A stretch of DNA of 56,554 bases from Candidatus Nomurabacteria bacterium RIFCSPLOWO2_01_FULL_33_24 (GTDB lineage Bacteria > Patescibacteriota > Minisyncoccia > Phycocordibacterales > MFUP01). Under the pieces are notes generated by a model. It saw only the letters and a list, made by a program, of their open reading frames with translations, was not told the DNA's origin and did no database searches. Within the stretch, counting starts at the first letter, position 1. Each line of letters opens with the position of its first letter. The position numbers and the translations under genes were made by a program. The stretch covers positions 1 to 56,554 of the forward strand of contig MFUP01000014.1 of NCBI GenBank assembly GCA_001785735.1, in the 5' to 3' direction. Shown here piece after piece: positions 724-30,696 of the stretch.

Positions 724-3700
724 CTATATTTCTTCAAAGATTATCTCTGGTAGTGGATTAATAGGGCTATTATTTGTAAGAATCACTGAGTCAGAAACAT
801 AGACAGAAGGATCAATCTCGCTCTGACAAGTAATAGTGAGAGTAACGGGTCCAGGATAAGGACTAACAATAACGCTAGTCTTTGTCCCAGAAGTTGCAAA
901 ATTAGTGTCAGTATTCCAAACAGGAGCACCAAAAGAACTTGTGGCATTACAACTATTAGCTAATAAATTATTCCCAGACCAGCGTAAATCAACTGTCCCC
1001 GGAATCATATCTTGAGGAGGAACATTGGCAGGATCAGGAATAAAATTACTATAAGTTAAGTTTACTGTTGGAGTTAAAATTTGTTGAGAAACAACTTCTG
1101 TATCAAAGAAATGATTATTAGAAGAATCAAGACAATCTATTACATAAACGGTTGGGTTCTCTGGGGTTTCTACTTCAAGAACTGGCCCCAAAGGACTATT
1201 AGAAGTATTAGGGATAGCAATCGCTGTTCCTGTCCCAGCAGGATCCCAGTTAGCAGTTGTAATTTTCCCAGAATAATTAGAGATATCCGAGGAAGGAAGA
1301 AGGGCAGAAATTCTTGGAATAAAACTATTGTCAAAACTGTAAGCTAAACAGCTGTTGAGGTCACCAGGAGCAAAAGTATTCGTTCCCCACCTAAGACCAG
1401 TTTCATATTTTAAACTAGCAGGATTGAAAGGAGCCGGAGTTAATCCAGACAAAGCTTGAAGGTAAAGATTCCCTTCGGGATTATATTCACATGGCAAAGG
1501 CGAACCTGTGTTGGTAGCTAAAGGATCACTACAATAACCAGACATATAAATACAATCACCGTCAGAATTAATAGTCATTCCGGCTGGTAAACTATTTTGA
1601 GTTCCTAGAATATTAGGACACCAGTCTGGACCAGGATCAGGAAGACAATTACCATCAACTAAATTAAATCCAAGGGGAACAACTAATTGAATATTTGGGA
1701 TATTTGGACAAACATCTTCTGGTGGCAAAATTGTGATGGTGGTGGTATCAGCCACAATATTTTCATTTCTTATTTTATTATCAGGACTTGAGGAGGTAAT
1801 TATCTTAAATCCTGTCGTCTCTGACCATAAAATAATTGTTCGGTTAGTTGAATCTCTTGGATCAACTACCGCAGTAATATTAAATATTCCATTAGGAGAA
1901 TTATCGGGATGGGAATTAATATCATCTGTTATTTCAGCAACAATTGTAGAAATACTTGTCCAAAATCCCTTTCGTTTAGTGATTAAGATACCGTTGATAG
2001 TTATTTCATAATCAATTGTTCCTCCTGTTTCAAATATTATTTTAGAAATCAAAGTATCGGCATTAGGATCATTTCTCAGACACTCAATATCATACTCTTT
2101 TACCACTGAGGTATTATTAGTATTTGTATTTACTAAATCTGTTTGGAGAATTGTTTCGCGCCCGGTTGGATCAACTAATAAACTATAATTCCAATCTACT
2201 CCGAGAGCGGAACAACTGCCGGGTTTGGTGTCAGAACCAGTCCATTCAAGAACAGCATCTGCTCCGGGAGCAGAAGGAACAGTAATATCATCATAATAAT
2301 TTCCGGCTGGGAGAGGATCGGTGGCTTCGGTATTTTTAGCTTTAATATCTATATTAGCTCCGAGTAAAACTGGAACACTGTCATTGACTGTTCCTCCAAA
2401 TTCATCATCACAAGTAATAGTGAAAGTAGCTGATTGAGTAAGATTTATACCAACAAAAGCTAAGCCACTTCCTGGGGTTGGAGCATTATCAGAAAGACTT
2501 TGCCCATTATACCACATAGGGATGCCAGCATTAGATGGAACAACCGAGGCAACACAACTTCCTGAAACAATATTTCTTGTTTTCCAAGTTAGTTTTATTA
2601 ACCCACCAGTAGCAGGTAAACTCAAAGAATTTTTTCCATCTGCCCTAATATCAACAATAGGAACTGTGGGAGGAAGAACATTAACATAAGCTTTTTGGTC
2701 GGCTGTCTTTTCTGTTGCTTCTGTTGCTAACCCGGAAACTCCTTGACAAGAAGTTTGGTAAACAAAAACTTTAGTTCCTATTAATGTTTGAACATCTCCA
2801 GTCGTCCCATAGTTAGTAATAATAAATTTAGAATTATTTGTATTTTTAATATCTAAGGTAATAGTAATAGTGTTATTTCCGTTCCAAACAGCGGTTACTC
2901 CTGAAGAATATTTTTTGTAATTAATCTCATTTGTCAATGTTTCAGCGTCAGCTACTAAATCTCCAGAATAAGTGACACTATCAATAGTTGCTCCATTGAG
3001 TTCAACCTTAAAACGACCTCCAAAAATAGAATTTTCTGTTAAAGTAATAATTCTACTAAAAATTGAGTTGGTTGGAGAGAAAGTAGAACGAAAAGTAGGA
3101 AAACCCATACTATCTCTACTTAAGTCTTTTACCGGGAAAGAGTTAATAAGAACTGTTTCATTCTTGGCCATCGCCACTACCTCATTTGAAACATTATTAT
3201 TAGGATCGTTGATTTCATTGGCTAGATTAATAGCGGAATTACTTAATGGAACAATTAAGGGAGTACTGATTGGATTATTATTGATAGCTAAACCGAAAGT
3301 GCCACTATTTCCACTCAAAACAACTCCCGCTAAATTGGTGTAAGATGATTGAATAATAATTTTAGCGTTATCTCCATAAACAATATTATTGGTCATATCC
3401 TCTATGGTAAATTGAGAATTTGAATAAACAGTAATTATATTTCCTGATGAGATGGCATTGATGCCAGTAGTGCCAGAATTTGAATTAATCAACGAAACTA
3501 AATTTGAAGCGGATAAGGTAAGATTATTATTAACTGTTTTATCATAAGTATTACTATTAATTTTTAGATGAAAAGTTCCGCTAGTTCCATATAATTGAGC
3601 ACTGGCTGATAAAGTATTAGAAGCAATGGTTCCGCTATTATTTAAGACTCCTGTGGTATTAAGCCCTGGACCAGGATGAAGCGGATTTTGGGTCGCGTGC

Positions 3701-6700
3701 CAACTTGGATCAGTCCAATTCCAATCACTACTAGAACCATAATTATTTGTGGATACGCAAGTGCTATAATCAACATTTCCACCCCACCACCTAATATCAA
3801 CTTCACTTCCAGAAGGAACATTGATAAGAGTATCTGGTCCAGAGGGTGTCTTTTCAACAGTTAAATTAACATAAGGATCTGGGAGAACATCAACAGTAAC
3901 TTCTTTAGGAGTCCCATCACAAGTAAGAATATATTTATAAGTATCAATTAAGGCAATGGTCATATTGGCAGGATTATATGAGTCTGTATAGAAACCATTA
4001 TTTAATTCAAAATTATCAGCCCCATCAGTAATAGAAAATGGCGTTGGTGAAGTAATTACAATTTTTGAACCAAAAGCTGTTGCTGTTAAGTTTGGAACAG
4101 TTGTTTGAATATCATTTATAAACAAAGCTATTAATTCTGCATCACTATCTGTGTCACCTGAGGCTAAAAATGGCCCAAAATGATTACCATTAATAACCAA
4201 CCAAAATTGATCATTAGTTCCAAGATCAATCCCCTCAATTCCTCCTGATAAAGTAACAATTGCTTTTTTGGTATAGGCTTGAGTACCATCATTAATTAAA
4301 GGACCTTGTGTTTCTTGACCTCCTAAAGGATTTTTATTTCCACTCCAGTTTCCAGTAGCTAGACAGCTAGACATATCTGTCGCTTCCCAAGTTAGTTCTG
4401 CCTCTGCTCCTGAAGGAATAACAATGCTGTCTGTTGGAGTATTCGGACTTGGTTTGGTATCTGGATCATCGCTTTTTACATCAAAAGTTATTCCTGAAGT
4501 ATCTTCCTCCTCTGGAAGAACAGTCACATATACTTCTTTTTTATCTATCATTCCTCCGGTTCCCGGAACTCCTTCGCATTGAACTTCGTAGGCTTTAACT
4601 ACTGTCCCTAAAGTCAGTTTTGGAGAAGAAGTTGTAATATCAAAAGTACCAGCCTGAGTAGCAACACTCTCAAGATTTACTTTAATGGTCTTGCCATTTG
4701 GAATAGCAATAATGCCAGGAATAGTATTTAATTTGGTTGATAAGCCAGAGGCATCATTTACTAAGTTTGAAGGATCAGAGGGATTTTGATATTTTGTTAT
4801 TCCATTTACTTCTATTCCCCAAGTATCTCCAGAACCTGTTGCGTTTCCAGACAAAGTAAGCATTTTTGTATAGGCATCAATAGTACTAACTGAAATTGAA
4901 TTAATGCTACTGGAAGTAGTATCTTTAGTTGGGAATGAATTAATAATAACAACATTATTTTTAGAAATTGCGGTTACTAATTCAGAAACAATCGGATCAG
5001 AGTTTATGGCATCTCTTAGGGCATTAGCAATTGCTGATTTTGTGCTCTCAGAAGCAGAGATTGGAGATCCATCAATTTCAATTTCATAAGTTCCTCCGAT
5101 ATCATCAATTGTTACTGTCGCTAATTGAACAGAGGATGTCCCAGCCCCATTGTTCTTCAGGAAATTATTTGTTTCTGCTGATCCTGCCCCTAATCCAAAA
5201 GGAGGTAAAACTTTGGTAGCATGATACCCGGGACCTTGCCAAATCCAATTAGAATCTCCGTCATTGTTGCGCGCCCTGCAATTATTAGTATCATATTTAA
5301 CATTATTTCCCCACCATTTTAGCCTGACTCGTTCTCCCGCTGAATTAGGACTAATAGAAACAACTGAACTTGGACCAACATTAGTAATAGTTCCTTCAAC
5401 AGTAAGTCCAACTTCTGGCTCTGGCAAAACAGTGACTGTAACACTTTCAGGATAATTATTTCCAGCAACATCCTGACAAGTTAAGATATATTCATAAGTA
5501 TCAACTAGGGCAATATTGATAATTAGATTTCCTCCGATTGTTCCTTCGTAACCATAATAACTTCCGGGATTAGGATTAGGTCTTTTTTCAGTAATTGTAA
5601 ACCACGAAGAAGAACTAGAAACTTCTATGGTATTTGTCCCGGTAGAAACAGCTGTTATATATCCCGGAAATGTGTCGTTAATTTTATTAATTAAAGCAGT
5701 ATAAGAATCAGTAAAATTATTATTAAAGGGAACTTCAACGGCTGTTCCTTCAATAATGACTCCAAAATAATTTCCAGAATTTCCCGATAAAGTCAAGATT
5801 GCTTTTTTGGTGACAGTTTGAGTGCCATTATTAATTAATATTCCTGTTGATTCCCCTTCTGTCCAAGGATCATTAAGATTAACTCTGGTTGGGGTGCTAG
5901 TTAAAACATCTGGAGTAATTCCCATTCCAGACAAAGTTACAATTTCGCCATTAGCAATGGCGTTAATGTTTGGCAAAGAATCCCAATCACTAGCAAAAGC
6001 GTGAGCTGCTTGAGCTGATGATGCGAAAGATTTAGTAACATAACCCTGCCCCGGAAGATTAATCTTAATTCTAAATTGTCCAGATCCAGAAAAAATAATA
6101 TCTCTCTGGAAAGTGGAAGAGATCCCTCTAGGACCTGTTCCCATAGGAGCGGCCCAATCTCCGCTGGCTTGACAACTGGTCATGTCCCCCATAGACCATT
6201 TTAATAAGGCTTCCGCTCCCGAAGGAATAATAATATCGGGATAGGCGACGGGAGAAGGAGAAGGTTGAGTATTTGGATTATCACTTTCTACGGTAAATAT
6301 TCCCGACGAAGACCCAATTTCAACTCCGGTTGGAAAAACAGAAACAAAAGCGCTATCAAAAACTTCAGAATCAGAATTAGGAACTCCTCCACAATAAAGA
6401 TCGTATTCATGAACAACCGTTCCAACAACAAAATCTCCGCTGGTAGTAATATCTTTTTGAAGTTTAAAATAAGAACCATTATAATTTGTATCAATTGAGT
6501 TGAGAGTGATATAAATATCCGCTCCCTCCGCTTTAGCCGTAAAGTATTTATTAAGGCTATTATCATTATTTATTTTATTTGCCAAATCTTGAGCATAATC
6601 AGAAAATGGAAGAATTGGGGTCTGCCAAGATAAAGAAGATATTGAGATACCGTTAATTTCAATGCCATATTTTTGAGAACCATTAGTTAAACTATTGGTA

Positions 6701-27252: not shown

Positions 27253-28008
27253 ATGATTGAAAAAATCCTAAAACAATTAAATTTCTCGTCAAAAGAAATA
27301 GAAGTTTATTTAATAATAACAAAAATTGACCAAGCCTCAGTATCATTAATATCAAAAGAAACAAATATAAATCGAACTACTATATACGATATTCTGGAAA
27401 ATCTTATGTCAAAAGGTATTGTTTCAAAAATTAAAAAATCAAGTAAATCCTTTTTTTATGCATTACCTCCTAGTAGACTTACTGATTATCTTGAAAGAGA
27501 AAGACGAGAATATAATCTAAAAATAGATATTCAGAAAGAAAGAATAGAAAAAATAATGCCTGAATTAATTTCTTTACAAAATTTGCATTCAAAGAATAAA
27601 CCCAGGGTTCATTTCTTTAGCGGGGAAAAAGGGATGAGGGAAGCCTATGAAGATTCCTTAACGGCTGAAGGAACGATCCGCGCTTATGCAAATGTAGAAG
27701 AAATGCATAAGGGATTGCCTAATTTTTTTCCTGAATATTATAAAAGAAGAACTCAGGCAAATATTCATATCAAAGCGATAATCCCCCAAAATGAGATTTC
27801 AAAAAGTAGAGTGCAAAAAAATAGTGAAGAAATGAGAACAACAAAATTTTTGCCAGAAGAAAAAATGACATTTAGTCCGGAAATTAATATTTATAATGAT
27901 AAAGTTCTTCTTGTTTCTTGGAGGGAATCAATGGCCATCATCATCCAATCAAAAGAATTGGCTGATTTTCATAAATTGACCTATGACCTATTGTGGGATA
28001 ATTTATAA
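27253..28008 (+). CDS. TrmB-family winged-helix transcriptional regulator
   Basis: N-terminal LNFSSKEIEVYLIITKIDQASVSLISKETNINRTTIYDILENLMSKGIVSKIKK matches the TrmB-type HTH pattern. Confidence 0.6.
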   Translation: MIEKILKQLNFSSKEIEVYLIITKIDQASVSLISKETNINRTTIYDILENLMSKGIVSKIKKSSKSFFYALPPSRLTDYLERERREYNLKIDIQKERIEKIMPELISLQNLHSKNKPRVHFFSGEKGMREAYEDSLTAEGTIRAYANVEEMHKGLPNFFPEYYKRRTQANIHIKAIIPQNEISKSRVQKNSEEMRTTKFLPEEKMTFSPEINIYNDKVLLVSWRESMAIIIQSKELADFHKLTYDLLWDNL

Positions 28009-28623
28009 TTTTTTAACACTACAACCCTTGGCTTTGTGGGCATCATTTCTTATTCCTCTCATCCCATAACCGTCAAAATAAAAACCAAGTACTTTTCTGG
28101 TTCCATAAACATTTGAAACGATTGTTCTTCCTTTTGATTTTCTTATTTCTCTAGGAATTCTTACCATCCCTGTGGTTAAATTTCCATCATCGGCTATTTT
28201 ATCAATCATTTCTGCCTCTTTTGTTGAAACACCATCAACAACAAGGGTGGGGATAGCATTGTTTCCTCCAATAAATTCCCAGTGGTAAGTTTTTTTCCAT
28301 TTATTTTTAGGCCAAGCATTTAAATAAGGACCATTCCAACCCTTGGCGGGCCTATTTCCTTTATAAGAAAAATTTCCTGAAACAAACATGGCTGTTTCGC
28401 AGACATCACCCCAATTAGCATCGTAACCGGGAAGCTCTTGGACATCATTAATATACGCGATGATAGCTTGATTCATTTCGCTAGCTTGGGCAATAGTGGC
28501 CACCACTCTTGCTCTTGTCCGGGCAGAATTAAGAGGAATCATTACAATACTAACTAAAAGACTCATTATGGCAATAACGACAAGCAATTCAATTAGGGTA
28601 AATCCCCGCTTATTATTCATCAT
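28003..28623 (-). CDS. type IV pilin / pseudopilin (prepilin N-terminal cleavage-methylation domain)
   Basis: KRGFTLIELLVVIAIMSLLVSIV class-III signal peptide. Confidence 0.85.
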   Translation of the reverse strand: MMNNKRGFTLIELLVVIAIMSLLVSIVMIPLNSARTRARVVATIAQASEMNQAIIAYINDVQELPGYDANWGDVCETAMFVSGNFSYKGNRPAKGWNGPYLNAWPKNKWKKTYHWEFIGGNNAIPTLVVDGVSTKEAEMIDKIADDGNLTTGMVRIPREIRKSKGRTIVSNVYGTRKVLGFYFDGYGMRGIRNDAHKAKGCSVKKL

Positions 28624-28891
28624 ACTCTAAGGTAATCATTTCTGGATTATCATTAATAAACTCTTCGGAATAATACTGATTATCTTTTTGTTGAAACCAG
28701 CCAAAAGAAAGGAAAAAGGCAACAAGAAAACAAAAAACAACCAGCCCGATCAAAAAATAATTTGCCTGTTTTTCATTTTTTATAAAACCACCAAAATGCT
28801 TTAGGACCCATTGGGTCATTTTTGATTCATAAAACCTATTTTCATGTTTTTTAATTTCTGGTTGATTTAAAAATTCAATATCATCAGACAT
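28613..28891 (-). CDS. small membrane protein upstream of the pilin gene
   Basis: 92-aa ORF with one TM helix (YFLIGLVVFCFLVAFFLSFGWF). It overlaps the pilin start by 11 nt. Confidence 0.45.
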   Translation of the reverse strand: MSDDIEFLNQPEIKKHENRFYESKMTQWVLKHFGGFIKNEKQANYFLIGLVVFCFLVAFFLSFGWFQQKDNQYYSEEFINDNPEMITLEYDE

Positions 28892-28921
28892 CGTTTATAT
28901 AATTGAAATTGTAACATGCTA

Positions 28922-29012
28922 TGCAGTATTCTTGAATTAGTCCGAGCGCATTTCGCCGCCTGCGGCGGCGACGGCCAGCCCACCAAAATTTGAGCGGCTT
29001 CGCCGCGCTCTT
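28922..29012. repeat. left terminal inverted repeat of the GC-rich island
   Basis: Positions 28932-29005 match the reverse complement of 30486-30559 with 3 mismatches over 74 nt. Weaker similarity extends to about 91 nt. It contains an internal GC hairpin, cgccgcc-tgc-ggcggcg. Confidence 0.8.
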
Positions 29013-29077
29013 TGACAATTTCAAGTTTTTCTATGAGTTAATCATAACTCATCACAGTAAATTTTCTAGCACCTTTA

Positions 29078-29117
29078 CAAAAAGAAAAAGGGTTCGCCAC
29101 CTTGCGATAGCGAACCC
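29078..29117 (-). terminator. rho-independent terminator of the PurM-like gene
   Basis: On the minus strand, gggttcgc-(12 nt)-gcgaaccc followed by tttttcttttt, 22 nt after the stop. Confidence 0.7.
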
Positions 29118-29138
29118 ATGAGTTTTGGAGTTTGTGAG

Positions 29139-30254
29139 TCATCGGACTCCGAGCGTTGCGCCAGGGTATTCAAGTCCTTTCGGCTTGATGATGACTTTCT
29201 TGTCGTCGCTTCGTTCGATGTATCCGGCGCGAAGCGCAACAAGTTTGTGCGAAGAGGCGATTTCGGCAACTACATCCGCGTCGGCTTCCGAAACATAGAG
29301 TGCGAAACCCGCACCCATGTTGAAGTTGCCATACGCCTCCATGTCGTCCACCGGACCGTGCTTCTGCAAGAAGTCGAAGATCGGAAGTTGTTTCGGCAAA
29401 CGCTCGATGATGTAGGCAAACGATTGCGTTGCTCGCATGAGCTTGCGCCAGCCGTGCCCCGTGACGTTCACTGTGTAGTGGATGTTCACGCCACGGTTAA
29501 GGCAATCTTCGACAAGAGCAACGTAGATGTGCGTAGGGTCGAGCAGTGTCTCGCCGTAGGTTCGACCATCGTTGAGCCGAGTCAGATAGCCGTCAGACAA
29601 CCTATCGGCGATCTTCCGTGCCATTGTGAGGCCGTTCGCATGGATACCGGAACTCTCGACGAGAACGATCTCGTCGCCATGTTGGATGTTGTCCGCAGTG
29701 ATGAGCCGCTCTTTCGGCTTCACGAGGCCCATCGCCGAACCGGAAAGAACAATCGCATACGGCACGACAACACCCTTAAGCGTCGGAGTTTCGCCGCCAC
29801 CCCAAACGCAACGCGCAAGGTTGCAAGCGTTCTTCCAACCTTCGACAAGATCACGACGTCGTTTCTCATCGTCGAACCAGTTGGAGTCGCCGACGGCGAG
29901 GTGCATCGCCACTGAAAGCGGGAGTGCGCCAAGCGTAATCATGTCGTTCACGATCATCGCCACAGTGTCCTGCGCGATGTGGTCGTAATACGATTTGCCG
30001 GTAAGACGATACATCGCGTCGGCGACAAGATTTTTCGTGCCAAGTCCTTCCTCAACGTGCGCGAAATAGCTCTCGGCCGCCTCGATGAGGTACGCGCTCT
30101 CGCCACGACTCATCTCGACTTCTCGAAATTCGCCATTGTTGAGACGATTGATATTTGCGGCAGTCTCACAACCCGCGAGTTGCGCCATGCGCTTGAATGG
30201 GTCCATTGCGTCGTAACTCACGCCAACTCCAGCATAGGTCATCTTTTCTGTCAT
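29139..30254 (-). CDS. AIR-synthase (PurM/ThiL/HypE/SelD) superfamily protein, PurM-like
   Basis: PurM-like landmarks: GLGTKNLVAD, DTVAMIVNDMITLGA, GGGETP, ESSGIHANGLTMARK, PTHIYV, VTGHGWRKL, NFNMGAGFALYV. The start at 30254 (MTEKMTYAGVG) sits 7 nt after AAGGAGGA. Confidence 0.75.
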   Translation of the reverse strand: MTEKMTYAGVGVSYDAMDPFKRMAQLAGCETAANINRLNNGEFREVEMSRGESAYLIEAAESYFAHVEEGLGTKNLVADAMYRLTGKSYYDHIAQDTVAMIVNDMITLGALPLSVAMHLAVGDSNWFDDEKRRRDLVEGWKNACNLARCVWGGGETPTLKGVVVPYAIVLSGSAMGLVKPKERLITADNIQHGDEIVLVESSGIHANGLTMARKIADRLSDGYLTRLNDGRTYGETLLDPTHIYVALVEDCLNRGVNIHYTVNVTGHGWRKLMRATQSFAYIIERLPKQLPIFDFLQKHGPVDDMEAYGNFNMGAGFALYVSEADADVVAEIASSHKLVALRAGYIERSDDKKVIIKPKGLEYPGATLGVR

Positions 30255-30478
30255 GTTCTTTCCTCCTTTTCCGTTTTTTGAGTTTTCAGGGTACAAATTA
30301 AGCCAAGCACTAGCTTGATCTCCTATGATGTAAATTACAACAAAACAAGATAGAAAGCAAGGTCAAAAAATAAAAAAAGAAATTCCTATGAATTTCTAAA
30401 TCAAATGAGTATGAAAAAATTTTCTTTTACAAAATATGGTTCGAGCCGATATTTTTATCAGGTTCTTTGGCAGCTTTT

Positions 30479-30569
30479 AAGATCGCGACGAAGCCGCTCA
30501 AATTTTGGGGGGCTGGCCGTCGCCGCCGCAGGCGGCGAAATGCGTTCGGACTAATTCAAAAATACAACA
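30479..30569. repeat. right terminal inverted repeat of the GC-rich island
   Basis: Reverse complement of the left IR (see 28922-29012). Confidence 0.8.
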
Positions 30570-30625
30570 CCAGCAAGGAATTTGCAAGCGATTTGGGTTC
30601 GCCTCGCTTGCAAATTCCTTGCTGG
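30557..30625 (-). terminator. terminator hairpin of the tRNA-Pro/tRNA-Gly unit
   Basis: Perfect 22-bp arms: ccagcaaggaatttgcaagcga (30570-30591) and tcgcttgcaaattccttgctgg (30604-30625). On the minus strand the hairpin begins within the CCA end of tRNA-Gly and is followed by tgttgtattttt, which lies inside the island IR. Confidence 0.65.
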
Positions 30626-30696
30626 TGCGGGTAGAGAGAATCGAACTCTCGTCTACTGCTTGGAAGGCAGTTATTCTACCACTAAACCATACCCGC
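30623..30696 (-). tRNA. tRNA-Gly (anticodon TCC), CCA encoded
   Basis: Manual cloverleaf: acceptor GCGGGTA/TACCCGC, anticodon arm ACTGC-CTTCCAA-GCAGT, T arm GAGAG-TTCGATT-CTCTC, then ACCA. Confidence 0.9.

Follow-up and report, generated by a model that had tools for sequence, protein, structure and literature searches.

How a GC-rich gene enclosed by long inverted repeats came to lie beside a tRNA gene in an AT-rich contig is the question raised by MFUP01000014.1 of Candidatus Nomurabacteria bacterium RIFCSPLOWO2_01_FULL_33_24, which was analysed over its whole length of 56,554 nt (hereafter the window, to which all positions refer). A sequence-only reading of this stretch had described the locus as a horizontally acquired, non-autonomous cargo element bounded by terminal inverted repeats and had been unable to assign it to a known class. 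Comparison with related loci, designated here by L numbers, now links it to a tRNA-targeting system of large serine recombinases (LSRs). The island is probably a self-expressing purM cassette of an LSR-linked family of elements that reside at tRNA 3′ ends in Patescibacteria, its own recombinase unit having been deleted.

The island is delimited by two inverted-repeat arms at 28926–29012 and 30479–30565, each 87 nt long, 94% complementary and separated by 1466 nt. The repeat had been placed at 28932–29005 and 30486–30559, and its bounds are thus slightly wider than first given. The 42-nt core of the arm is present in exactly two copies in the window and in none of 100 shuffles, and both arms contain the hairpin CGCCGCC-TGC-GGCGGCG that had been noticed earlier. 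The jump in composition is also as reported, with a GC content of 0.52–0.58 across 29100–30200 and of about 0.25–0.35 in the flanks; the high values are limited to purM and the two arms, as the spacers at 29013–29138 and 30255–30478 have 0.37 and 0.30, respectively. The proposed check of codon usage gave a GC content at third codon positions (GC3) of 0.645 for purM versus 0.231 ± 0.025 for 27 host open reading frames (ORFs), the maximum among which is 0.286. The single PurM-like gene, its own terminator and the palindrome upstream of it (30379–30398) are all present. No homolog of the family's LSR was found by tblastn anywhere in the window, and the island itself contains no recombinase, in keeping with its description as non-autonomous. 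The features of the locus are as follows.

28923–29012, minus strand: gene-distal arm (D arm), recognised as an inverted repeat, as a member of an arm family found in 48 loci and by the spacing of its T-loop-like motif.
29013–29075, minus strand: D-module, a non-coding block conserved across cassettes with different cargo, with a BLAST match to the recombinase gene at 29014–29035.
29090–29117, minus strand: intrinsic terminator of purM, a 12-bp stem and a T-run, whose sequence is kept in homologous cassettes.
29139–30254, minus strand: cargo gene, a divergent purM (AIR synthetase) of 371 amino acids, GC 0.553, GC3 0.645, identified by family assignment, the purine-operon context of homologs outside the candidate phyla radiation, and codon statistics.
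30255–30378, minus strand: cassette promoter region and 5′ leader, including a hairpin at 30303–30318, homologous to the leaders of the other-cargo cassettes L109, L134 and L135.
30379–30398, minus strand: terminator-like hairpin AGAAATTC-ATAG-GAATTTCT and a T-run, with compensatory stem variants in other cassettes.
30405–30478, minus strand: U-module, remnants of an internally deleted recombinase gene, read from the intact-to-deleted series seen in L120.
30479–30565, plus strand: promoter-side arm (U arm), an inverted copy of the D arm with a slightly decayed outer end (..AATACAACACCAG).
30568–30627, no strand: perfect 24-bp hairpin with a 12-nt loop, DNA fold z-score −9.7, homologous to the repeat IR-a and to the recombinase 3′ end (both described below).
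30623–30696, minus strand: tRNA-Gly(TCC), the putative integration target, from tRNA prediction and junction comparison.

The arms are shared by cassettes that carry quite different genes. Searching metagenome contigs with the arm core, as the sequence-only reading had proposed for finding further copies, gave 48 loci, only four of which have purM. Nine loci contain two arms, placed 0.84–2.9 kb apart and oriented to each other as they are in the window, and the cargos found between arms comprise purD, pyrF with pyrE, thiC with the seryl-tRNA synthetase gene serS, a short-chain dehydrogenase, an SPFH/Band_7 protein and small unknown proteins. At least nine different cargos are thereby bounded by the same arms, which bears out the view of the island as a repeat-bounded cargo element. 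Conservation reaches inward past the repeats into two different blocks, the U-module on the promoter side and the D-module on the terminator side. L109, L134 and L135 have the insulating hairpin, promoter and 5′ leader in common with the window cassette and encode unrelated proteins; the cassette is thus a common expression platform for different genes, in which the hairpin at 30379–30398 is predicted to insulate the cassette promoter. The arms and cassettes are located within or next to tRNA genes and tRNA clusters, tandem cassettes occur in L134 and L136, and no arm was found in the rest of the window or in the 5-kb flanks of 80 other loci. Separately, cassettes for a 236-amino-acid unknown protein (L101, about 1450–1800 on the minus strand, L104 and L127) display a conserved GC-rich leader of about 250 nt (..GCCGCTTAAGCGGGTAGCGCCTTGGGTATC..) between promoter and gene, which may be a structured regulatory RNA.

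The arms themselves do not appear to act as genes or as folded molecules. Arginine-rich ORFs at 28884–29024 and 30467–30634 were considered as coding arms and rejected because the length of the G-runs varies by 1–3 nt between copies. A role as structured RNA or DNA was rejected on comparison with shuffled sequences, than which the arms fold no better (z-scores −1.7 and −2.0), and in an Rfam scan of the arms, the leader and the flank of L087 only tRNAs reached the family threshold. The arms of one element share element-specific variants, which fits periodic pairing as a palindrome or gene conversion between arms.

The enzyme linked to these arms is an LSR. In at least 17 loci the U arm terminates outward in ..GAATAGAGCACCA (GCACCA), which is directly followed by GTAAGG.. 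and then by a recombinase gene that starts about 150 nt beyond GTAAGG and reads away from the cassette. Its product has 489–532 amino acids and the Pfam domains Resolvase, Recombinase and Zn_ribbon_recom, and it is present in the relatives L101, L105, L109, L116, L119, L130, L131, L147, L148 and L150. The 3′ end of the LSR gene always overlaps the 3′ end of a tRNA gene on the opposite strand (Phe, Lys, Arg, Ile, Leu or Tyr); the tRNA junction, ..GCACCA|GTAAGG, is identical in all cases and has the same sequence as the internal junction between arm and recombinase unit. The final ~98 nt of the gene (IR-a′) recur as an inverted copy (IR-a) ahead of the LSR promoter, with 96–100% identity between the two. 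A complete unit, which spans 3–5 kb and combines the recombinase with one or two metabolic genes, begins with tRNA ..GC|ACCA and continues with IR-a′ (~98 nt), the LSR gene, whose own 3′ end is IR-a′, the LSR promoter and IR-a; then come TGGT-GC, the arm-bounded cassette, GC-A(CCA) and the original sequence downstream of the tRNA. Three LSR loci that were reached through protein homologs, without the arms as query, have the same layout, namely the tRNA overlap, recombinase-flanking repeats of 96–100% identity, arm pairs of 76–113 nt and 88–95% identity, and small cargo. The same architecture is found on contigs of up to 257 kb, and L120 and L098 show that the recombinase unit can lie in either orientation.

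Homologs of the LSR are numerous (7462 of 8000 scored candidates at E ≤ 0.001), and identity is at least 78% in the top 120 clusters, with names at this level that include Jorgensen-, Kuenen-, Moranbacteria and Parcubacteria. With phage LSRs the enzyme shares at most 30% identity, and neither a purM homolog nor an arm was found in IMG/VR; carriage by phages was rejected on these grounds. In L148 (5967–9494), two recombinase units face each other across a cluster of four tRNA genes, each overlapping a different tRNA-Leu, and are 80% identical over 1050 nt.

All junctions compared fall at the GC of ..GC|ACCA, which corresponds to tRNA positions 71–72. No target-site duplication is present at the window island, as had been observed from the outset, or at any of the 10 two-arm loci, and none is expected of a tRNA-targeting LSR system. 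We infer from these junctions that recombination is conservative and takes place at the central GC dinucleotide. The spacing of a sequence motif bears on the assignment of the two kinds of site: the motif GTTCRAN is located 11 nt from the GC in 10 of 10 tRNA junctions and 16 nt from it in 73 arm copies, where it has the form GCGTTCGAA or GCGCTCGGA (GTTCGAA, T-loop-like), the tRNA T-loop being GGTTCGAA. In half-sites of LSRs, the distal motif of the zinc-ribbon domain is shifted 5 bp outward in attP compared to attB (PMC3783163), and the spacings of 16 and 11 nt match this shift.

At the window island, the D arm has the outer end ..GAATACT-GC-A, after which the host flank begins; its junction dinucleotide is most simply placed at the GC of 28923–28924, from which the T-loop-like motif GCGCTCGGA is 16 nt away. 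The crossover in tRNA-Gly would lie at the GC of 30627–30628 (tRNA positions 71–72), and the identity across all tRNA junctions compared suggests that the ACCA after this GC was supplied by the element. A parallel is provided by tRNA-Phe genes without an element (L100, about 990–1045, and L110, beside tRNA-Gly), which end in ..GGCACA and have no encoded CCA, whereas element-carrying tRNAs end in ..GCACCA (for example, L101, about 3460–3545); an encoded discriminator base and CCA thus seem to come from the element. In L101, the D arm is flanked by GC|ACCACTAAATGG, which agrees with the native continuation of tRNA-Phe in L100, GC|ACACTAAGG. L134 has tRNA-Arg ..GGGCGC|AGTATTC(arm) without a recombinase unit, and L150 has tRNA..GC|ACCAGTAAGG..rec..CCTTACTGGTGC|AGTATTC(arm).

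The chromosomal side of the D arm offers a further comparison. Adjoining the island there are a gene for a type IV pilin-like protein, which has a methylation motif at its N terminus (28003–28623), and a 92-amino-acid ORFan (28613–28891), whose start codon is 34 nt from the arm, so that its promoter may lie partly in the arm. The ORFan was found only in this population, and an empty-site search through it yielded L146 (1–285, ENA ERZ4903185, corresponding to about 29013–29200 of the window) and no empty site. L146 agrees with the window in its 92-amino-acid neighbour and its D-arm junction, and the cargo end upstream of its D-module is different and AT-rich, a constellation best read as cassette replacement at one chromosomal site between strains.

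Traces of the missing recombinase unit are preserved in the window copy. Positions 30410–30609 are 92% identical to a stretch of L116 that comprises the U-module, the U arm and the start of IR-a, and positions 30568–30609 also match the recombinase 3′ end in reverse. The hairpin at 30568–30627 tracks IR-a up to ..GCCTCGCTT (~37 nt) and then the last 18–20 nt of IR-a′ (GCAAATTCCTTGCTGGTG), the two repeats having TCGCTT in common. A deletion at this TCGCTT microhomology would have taken the recombinase gene with its promoter, along with most of IR-a and IR-a′. The right repeat does adjoin a hairpin beside tRNA-Gly(TCC), as the sequence-only reading had it, but this hairpin, which had been taken for the terminator of the tRNA gene, is in all likelihood a 60-nt scar made of the fused outer ends of the recombinase unit and not a host terminator. 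L151, a purM cassette of 97% identity that comes from a different sample, retains its junction to IR-a, of which at least 58 nt are present. To judge from its sequence, the window copy is an immobilised relic that could be mobile only with a recombinase supplied in trans.

The cargo is most probably a member of the PurM family in spite of its divergence. The protein, identical to ‘hypothetical protein A2995_01080’ of the same organism, has the Pfam domains AIRS and AIRS_C; its score against TIGR00878 purM is 180.7 bits, the curated cutoff being 236.35, and its gene stands alone in the window. Its nearest structures in the PDB are all PurM, with E-values from 5e-36, and homologs of 62–74% identity, which come from Vicinamibacterales, Saccharibacteria and Syntrophaceae-like genomes, adjoin purF, purN and purL. 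We therefore regard the family as probably a true, though divergent, purM. Within Patescibacteria, homologs that are 75–100% identical at the protein level occur across many named lineages, where the GC content of the gene stays at about 0.52–0.60 regardless of a host GC content of 0.33–0.50, the neighbours of purM vary from genome to genome, and cassettes adjoin at least five different tRNA genes (tRNA-Gly, Leu, Ala, His and Phe). These properties, together with the foreign codon usage, sustain the proposal of horizontal acquisition. The gene differs from that of L001 by 115 synonymous and 38 non-synonymous codon changes, which argues that it is functional and has long been on the move.

Paired repeats are not a general trait of the purM family: they flank the gene in only three of 82 loci (the window, L001 and L009), and a single downstream arm persists in more loci than these three. 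Other variations on the purM cassette were also seen. An additional ORF of about 95 amino acids (MTPEKV..) lies between the cassette promoter and purM in L006 (about 310–590) and L008 (about 4710–4990). The same purM cassette and downstream flank are found in L010 and L015, which belong to metagenome-assembled genomes named Woesearchaeota archaeon and Moranbacteria bacterium (the upstream flank is missing from L015); this suggests either that short repeat-bounded contigs were mis-binned or that the transfer was very recent. A 27-nt direct repeat surrounds the L010-type cassette, and part of it is the conserved end of the cassette itself.

Combining these observations, we propose the following model for the movement of the elements, in which the activity of the enzyme is predicted from sequence. 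The LSR would insert or exchange units by strand exchange at GC. The arms would be attP-type half-sites, in which the tRNA T-loop-like motif is located 5 bp farther from the crossover than in the tRNA. An excised cassette circle would carry a symmetric attP-like palindrome of the form arm-GC-arm (..GAATACT-GC-AGTATTC..), and a cassette integrated from such a circle would be bounded by long inverted repeats. As TGGT-GC-ACCA forms a perfect palindrome around the symmetric dinucleotide GC, insertion should be possible in either orientation. The empty tRNA-Gly site would read ..CCGC-A-TAGCATGTTAC, and IR-a′-TGGTGCACCA-IR-a is one candidate recombination site. In the window, deletion between the two repeats of the recombinase unit would have left the 60-nt hairpin and the cassette.

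The inner ends of the arms tell of a second relationship between cassette and recombinase. In every cassette they abut invariant 16–18-mers, AAAACTTGAAATTGTC and AAAAACTGCCAAAGAACC, which are recombinase codons 41–46 and 47–53. The D-module of the window terminates in AAAACTTGAAATTGTC, preceded by sequence that resembles the recombinase 5′ leader, and the U-module contains codons 47–53 at 30459–30478 and codons 446–455 (KNIGSNHIL, 9 of 9 identical) at 30430–30456. In intact recombinase genes, the same two 16–18-mers flank a perfect hairpin of 17–21 nt within the coding sequence, at codons 46/47 (L116, 3698–5167; L091, L101, L105, L109, L119, L129, L130, L147, L148 and L150). This hairpin, of which there are at least seven compensatory stem variants, including GCCTCGC-TTT-GCGAGGC, GCTTCC-TTTCA-GGAAGC and GGTCCGAC-TTTC-GTCGAGACC, occupies the exact place that the arms have in cassettes. 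No dyad symmetry was found between the 16–18-mers at the arm inner ends. L120 represents an intermediate, in which an internally deleted but contiguous recombinase gene is followed by cargo and a D arm. Read as a circle, the cassette looks like a recombinase-plus-cargo element that was opened at the codon-46/47 hairpin; alternatively, the arm pair may be a palindrome expanded from this hairpin.

Several observations weigh against assigning the island to an LSR family that acts at the outer ends of the arms. Paired arms are missing from 79 of the 82 purM loci. Neither a circular cassette junction nor a precisely empty site was recovered for the window locus. In L121, an LSR of 42% identity with different flanking repeats lies beside the same arms, and the pairing of arms and recombinase is therefore not exclusive. 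The IR-a repeats, on reading their sequences, have no T-loop-like motif, and the notion that the recombinase-flanking repeats are att half-sites with such a motif was consequently rejected. Finally, a crossover at the outer end would leave the invariant 16–18-mers at the inner end unexplained. A more far-reaching interpretation that takes in the relics, which we put forward tentatively and hold to be somewhat less probable than its negation, is that the family is a serine-recombinase counterpart of the integron: a tRNA-anchored LSR would capture, stack and swap self-expressing cassettes (purM, purD, pyrE/F, thiC, serS and others) at sites that are long palindromes mimicking the tRNA T-arm at attP spacing, and the cassettes would descend from a circular recombinase-plus-cargo element integrated via the codon-46/47 hairpin.

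Other explanations of the locus have to be weighed against its assignment to the LSR-linked family. One possibility, which the sequence-only reading had asked to be excluded, is an assembly chimera in which GC-rich foreign DNA was joined to the AT-rich contig at a repeat. Contigs L141, L142, L144 and L145 do break inside arms, and in L087 (1–83, ENA ERZ27254752), which contains a 99.96% identical copy of the cassette, the sequence outside the U arm is not the hairpin and tRNA-Gly but a different stretch of 79 nt with a 15-nt match to the tRNA-Leu 3′ end. However, the gene, both arms and the left junction are reproduced in the assemblies L088, L089 and L143, which derive from other samples and assemblers, and the architecture recurs on the long contigs described above; a chimera is therefore very unlikely, to the point that we give it hardly any weight. 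Independent support for the right junction to the tRNA is weak, L089 reaching 18 nt past the arm. A vertically inherited gene whose repeats act at the RNA level or as insulators, for example as a stem between the 5′ and 3′ ends that stabilises the transcript, with a GC content due to selection on the gene, would accord with purifying selection on the gene, seen in the excess of synonymous changes, and with a purM that stays at ~55% GC in hosts of 33–50% GC. But the arms lie outside the cassette terminator and promoter, flank unrelated genes, vary in their G-runs, fold as shuffled sequences do and have no matching family in Rfam, and purM is found in different surroundings in different genomes, all of which makes this explanation highly improbable.

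The remaining explanations invoke mobility or rearrangement by a different route. An invertible segment of the Hin/Gin type, in which a recombinase flips the DNA between the arms to alter expression, is suggested by inverted repeats with a serine recombinase gene beside one of them, by the element-specific variants that the arms of one element share and by the two orientations of the recombinase unit. Nevertheless, we consider inversion very improbable: in about 16 of 17 loci the cassette points the same way with respect to the recombinase, and the exception, L111, fits a tandem junction; the enzyme is an LSR of 489–532 and not an invertase of ~190 amino acids; and the cassette brings its own promoter and is bordered by terminators on both sides, so that no obvious change would follow from flipping it. 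Cut-and-paste movement of purM as a MITE-like (miniature inverted-repeat transposable element) or composite DDE transposon, with the transposase encoded elsewhere, would explain why long inverted repeats form the ends, why the same repeats enclose variable cargo and why no transposase lies inside, yet it is highly improbable when insertions are restricted to tRNA 3′ ends at a fixed GC, none of the 10 two-arm loci has a target-site duplication, no enzyme gene other than that of an LSR recurs beside the arms, and further arms are absent from the rest of the window and from the 5-kb flanks of the 80 other loci. An integron-type cassette moved by a tyrosine integrase at attC-like palindromes would likewise explain single-gene cassettes, tandem arrays with an arm|arm palindrome in between and a recombinase gene at the proximal end; it is extremely unlikely in view of a linked recombinase that is a serine and not a tyrosine enzyme, cassettes that have their own promoters, and a proximal site that is a tRNA 3′ end and not attI.

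LSRs are known to mobilise integrative elements and transposons, including serine-integrase prophages, Tn4451 with TnpX and Tn5397 with TndX. The Patescibacteria family resembles them in the Resolvase, Recombinase and zinc-ribbon domains, the lack of a target-site duplication, the fixed junction dinucleotide, the 5-bp attP/attB motif offset of its att-like half-sites and a recombinase gene that overlaps the attachment site at the end of the element. It differs in a size of only 3–5 kb, a target that is the GCACCA end common to many tRNAs, two sets of long, near-perfect inverted repeats (76–113 nt and ~98 nt) in place of imperfect dyads of ~25 bp, a cassette that appears separable from the recombinase unit, and an enzyme that is at most 30% identical to phage LSRs. 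In SSV-type archaeal viruses, attP lies inside a tyrosine integrase gene, and integration into a tRNA gene splits the integrase gene. Here, similarly, the two halves of a site in the recombinase gene (codons 41–46 and 47–53) border the cassette from within, circularly permuted and beside a tRNA; unlike in SSV, the recombinase is not a tyrosine enzyme, intact recombinase genes lie beside the cassette, and the fragments in the cassette are short relics. MITE-bounded composites also have two inverted copies of a short repeat that bracket a cargo gene without its own enzyme, but here a target-site duplication is lacking, the window and the 5-kb flanks of the 80 other loci showed no dispersed solo copies, and the position is strictly tRNA-proximal. 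With integron cassettes, the family shares single-gene cassettes, arrays beside a recombinase gene and palindromic sites between cassettes (L134), and it differs from them in its serine enzyme, the cassettes' own promoter and terminators, the proximal site at a tRNA end and arms that are not attC-like.

The closest functional analogue is the tycheposon of Prochlorococcus, which likewise carries cargo in a streamlined genome, integrates at tRNA genes, brings metabolic ‘plug-in’ genes and can be placed in tandem (bioRxiv 10.1101/2020.12.28.424599). Tycheposons have the size of the 10–20-kb phage-inducible chromosomal islands, mostly encode tyrosine recombinases, with LSRs in a minority, and in many cases carry replication genes; their description mentions neither long inverted-repeat arms nor a shared expression platform (bioRxiv 10.1101/2020.12.28.424599). 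The parts of the present system, that is, LSRs, integration at tRNA ends and cargo islands, are already known. What appears to be new is their combination in 3–5-kb units with two sets of long repeats, tRNA-mimicking arms at attP spacing, a shared platform with varied cargo and permuted recombinase relics. In the literature, we found no description of such LSR/tRNA cassette elements in Patescibacteria.

Patescibacteria have tiny genomes with patchy metabolism, and how they gain and lose single genes is poorly understood. As the window copy seems to be an immobilised relic, the interest of this locus lies in the family that it reveals, which is a concrete, sequence-defined vehicle of 3–5 kb consisting of one recombinase and a ready-to-express cassette, targeted to the end common to many tRNA genes and present in many lineages. 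Its cargo includes nucleotide and cofactor biosynthesis genes with foreign codon usage. The family could help explain why near-identical metabolic genes are found in distant Patescibacteria, and why such genes are assembled on short contigs that break at repeats and are assigned to wrong bins. It also supplies natural LSR sites of an unusual, tRNA-mimicking design. If the comparison to integrons is correct, these elements would constitute a dedicated route for the trade of metabolic genes among reduced, symbiotic bacteria.

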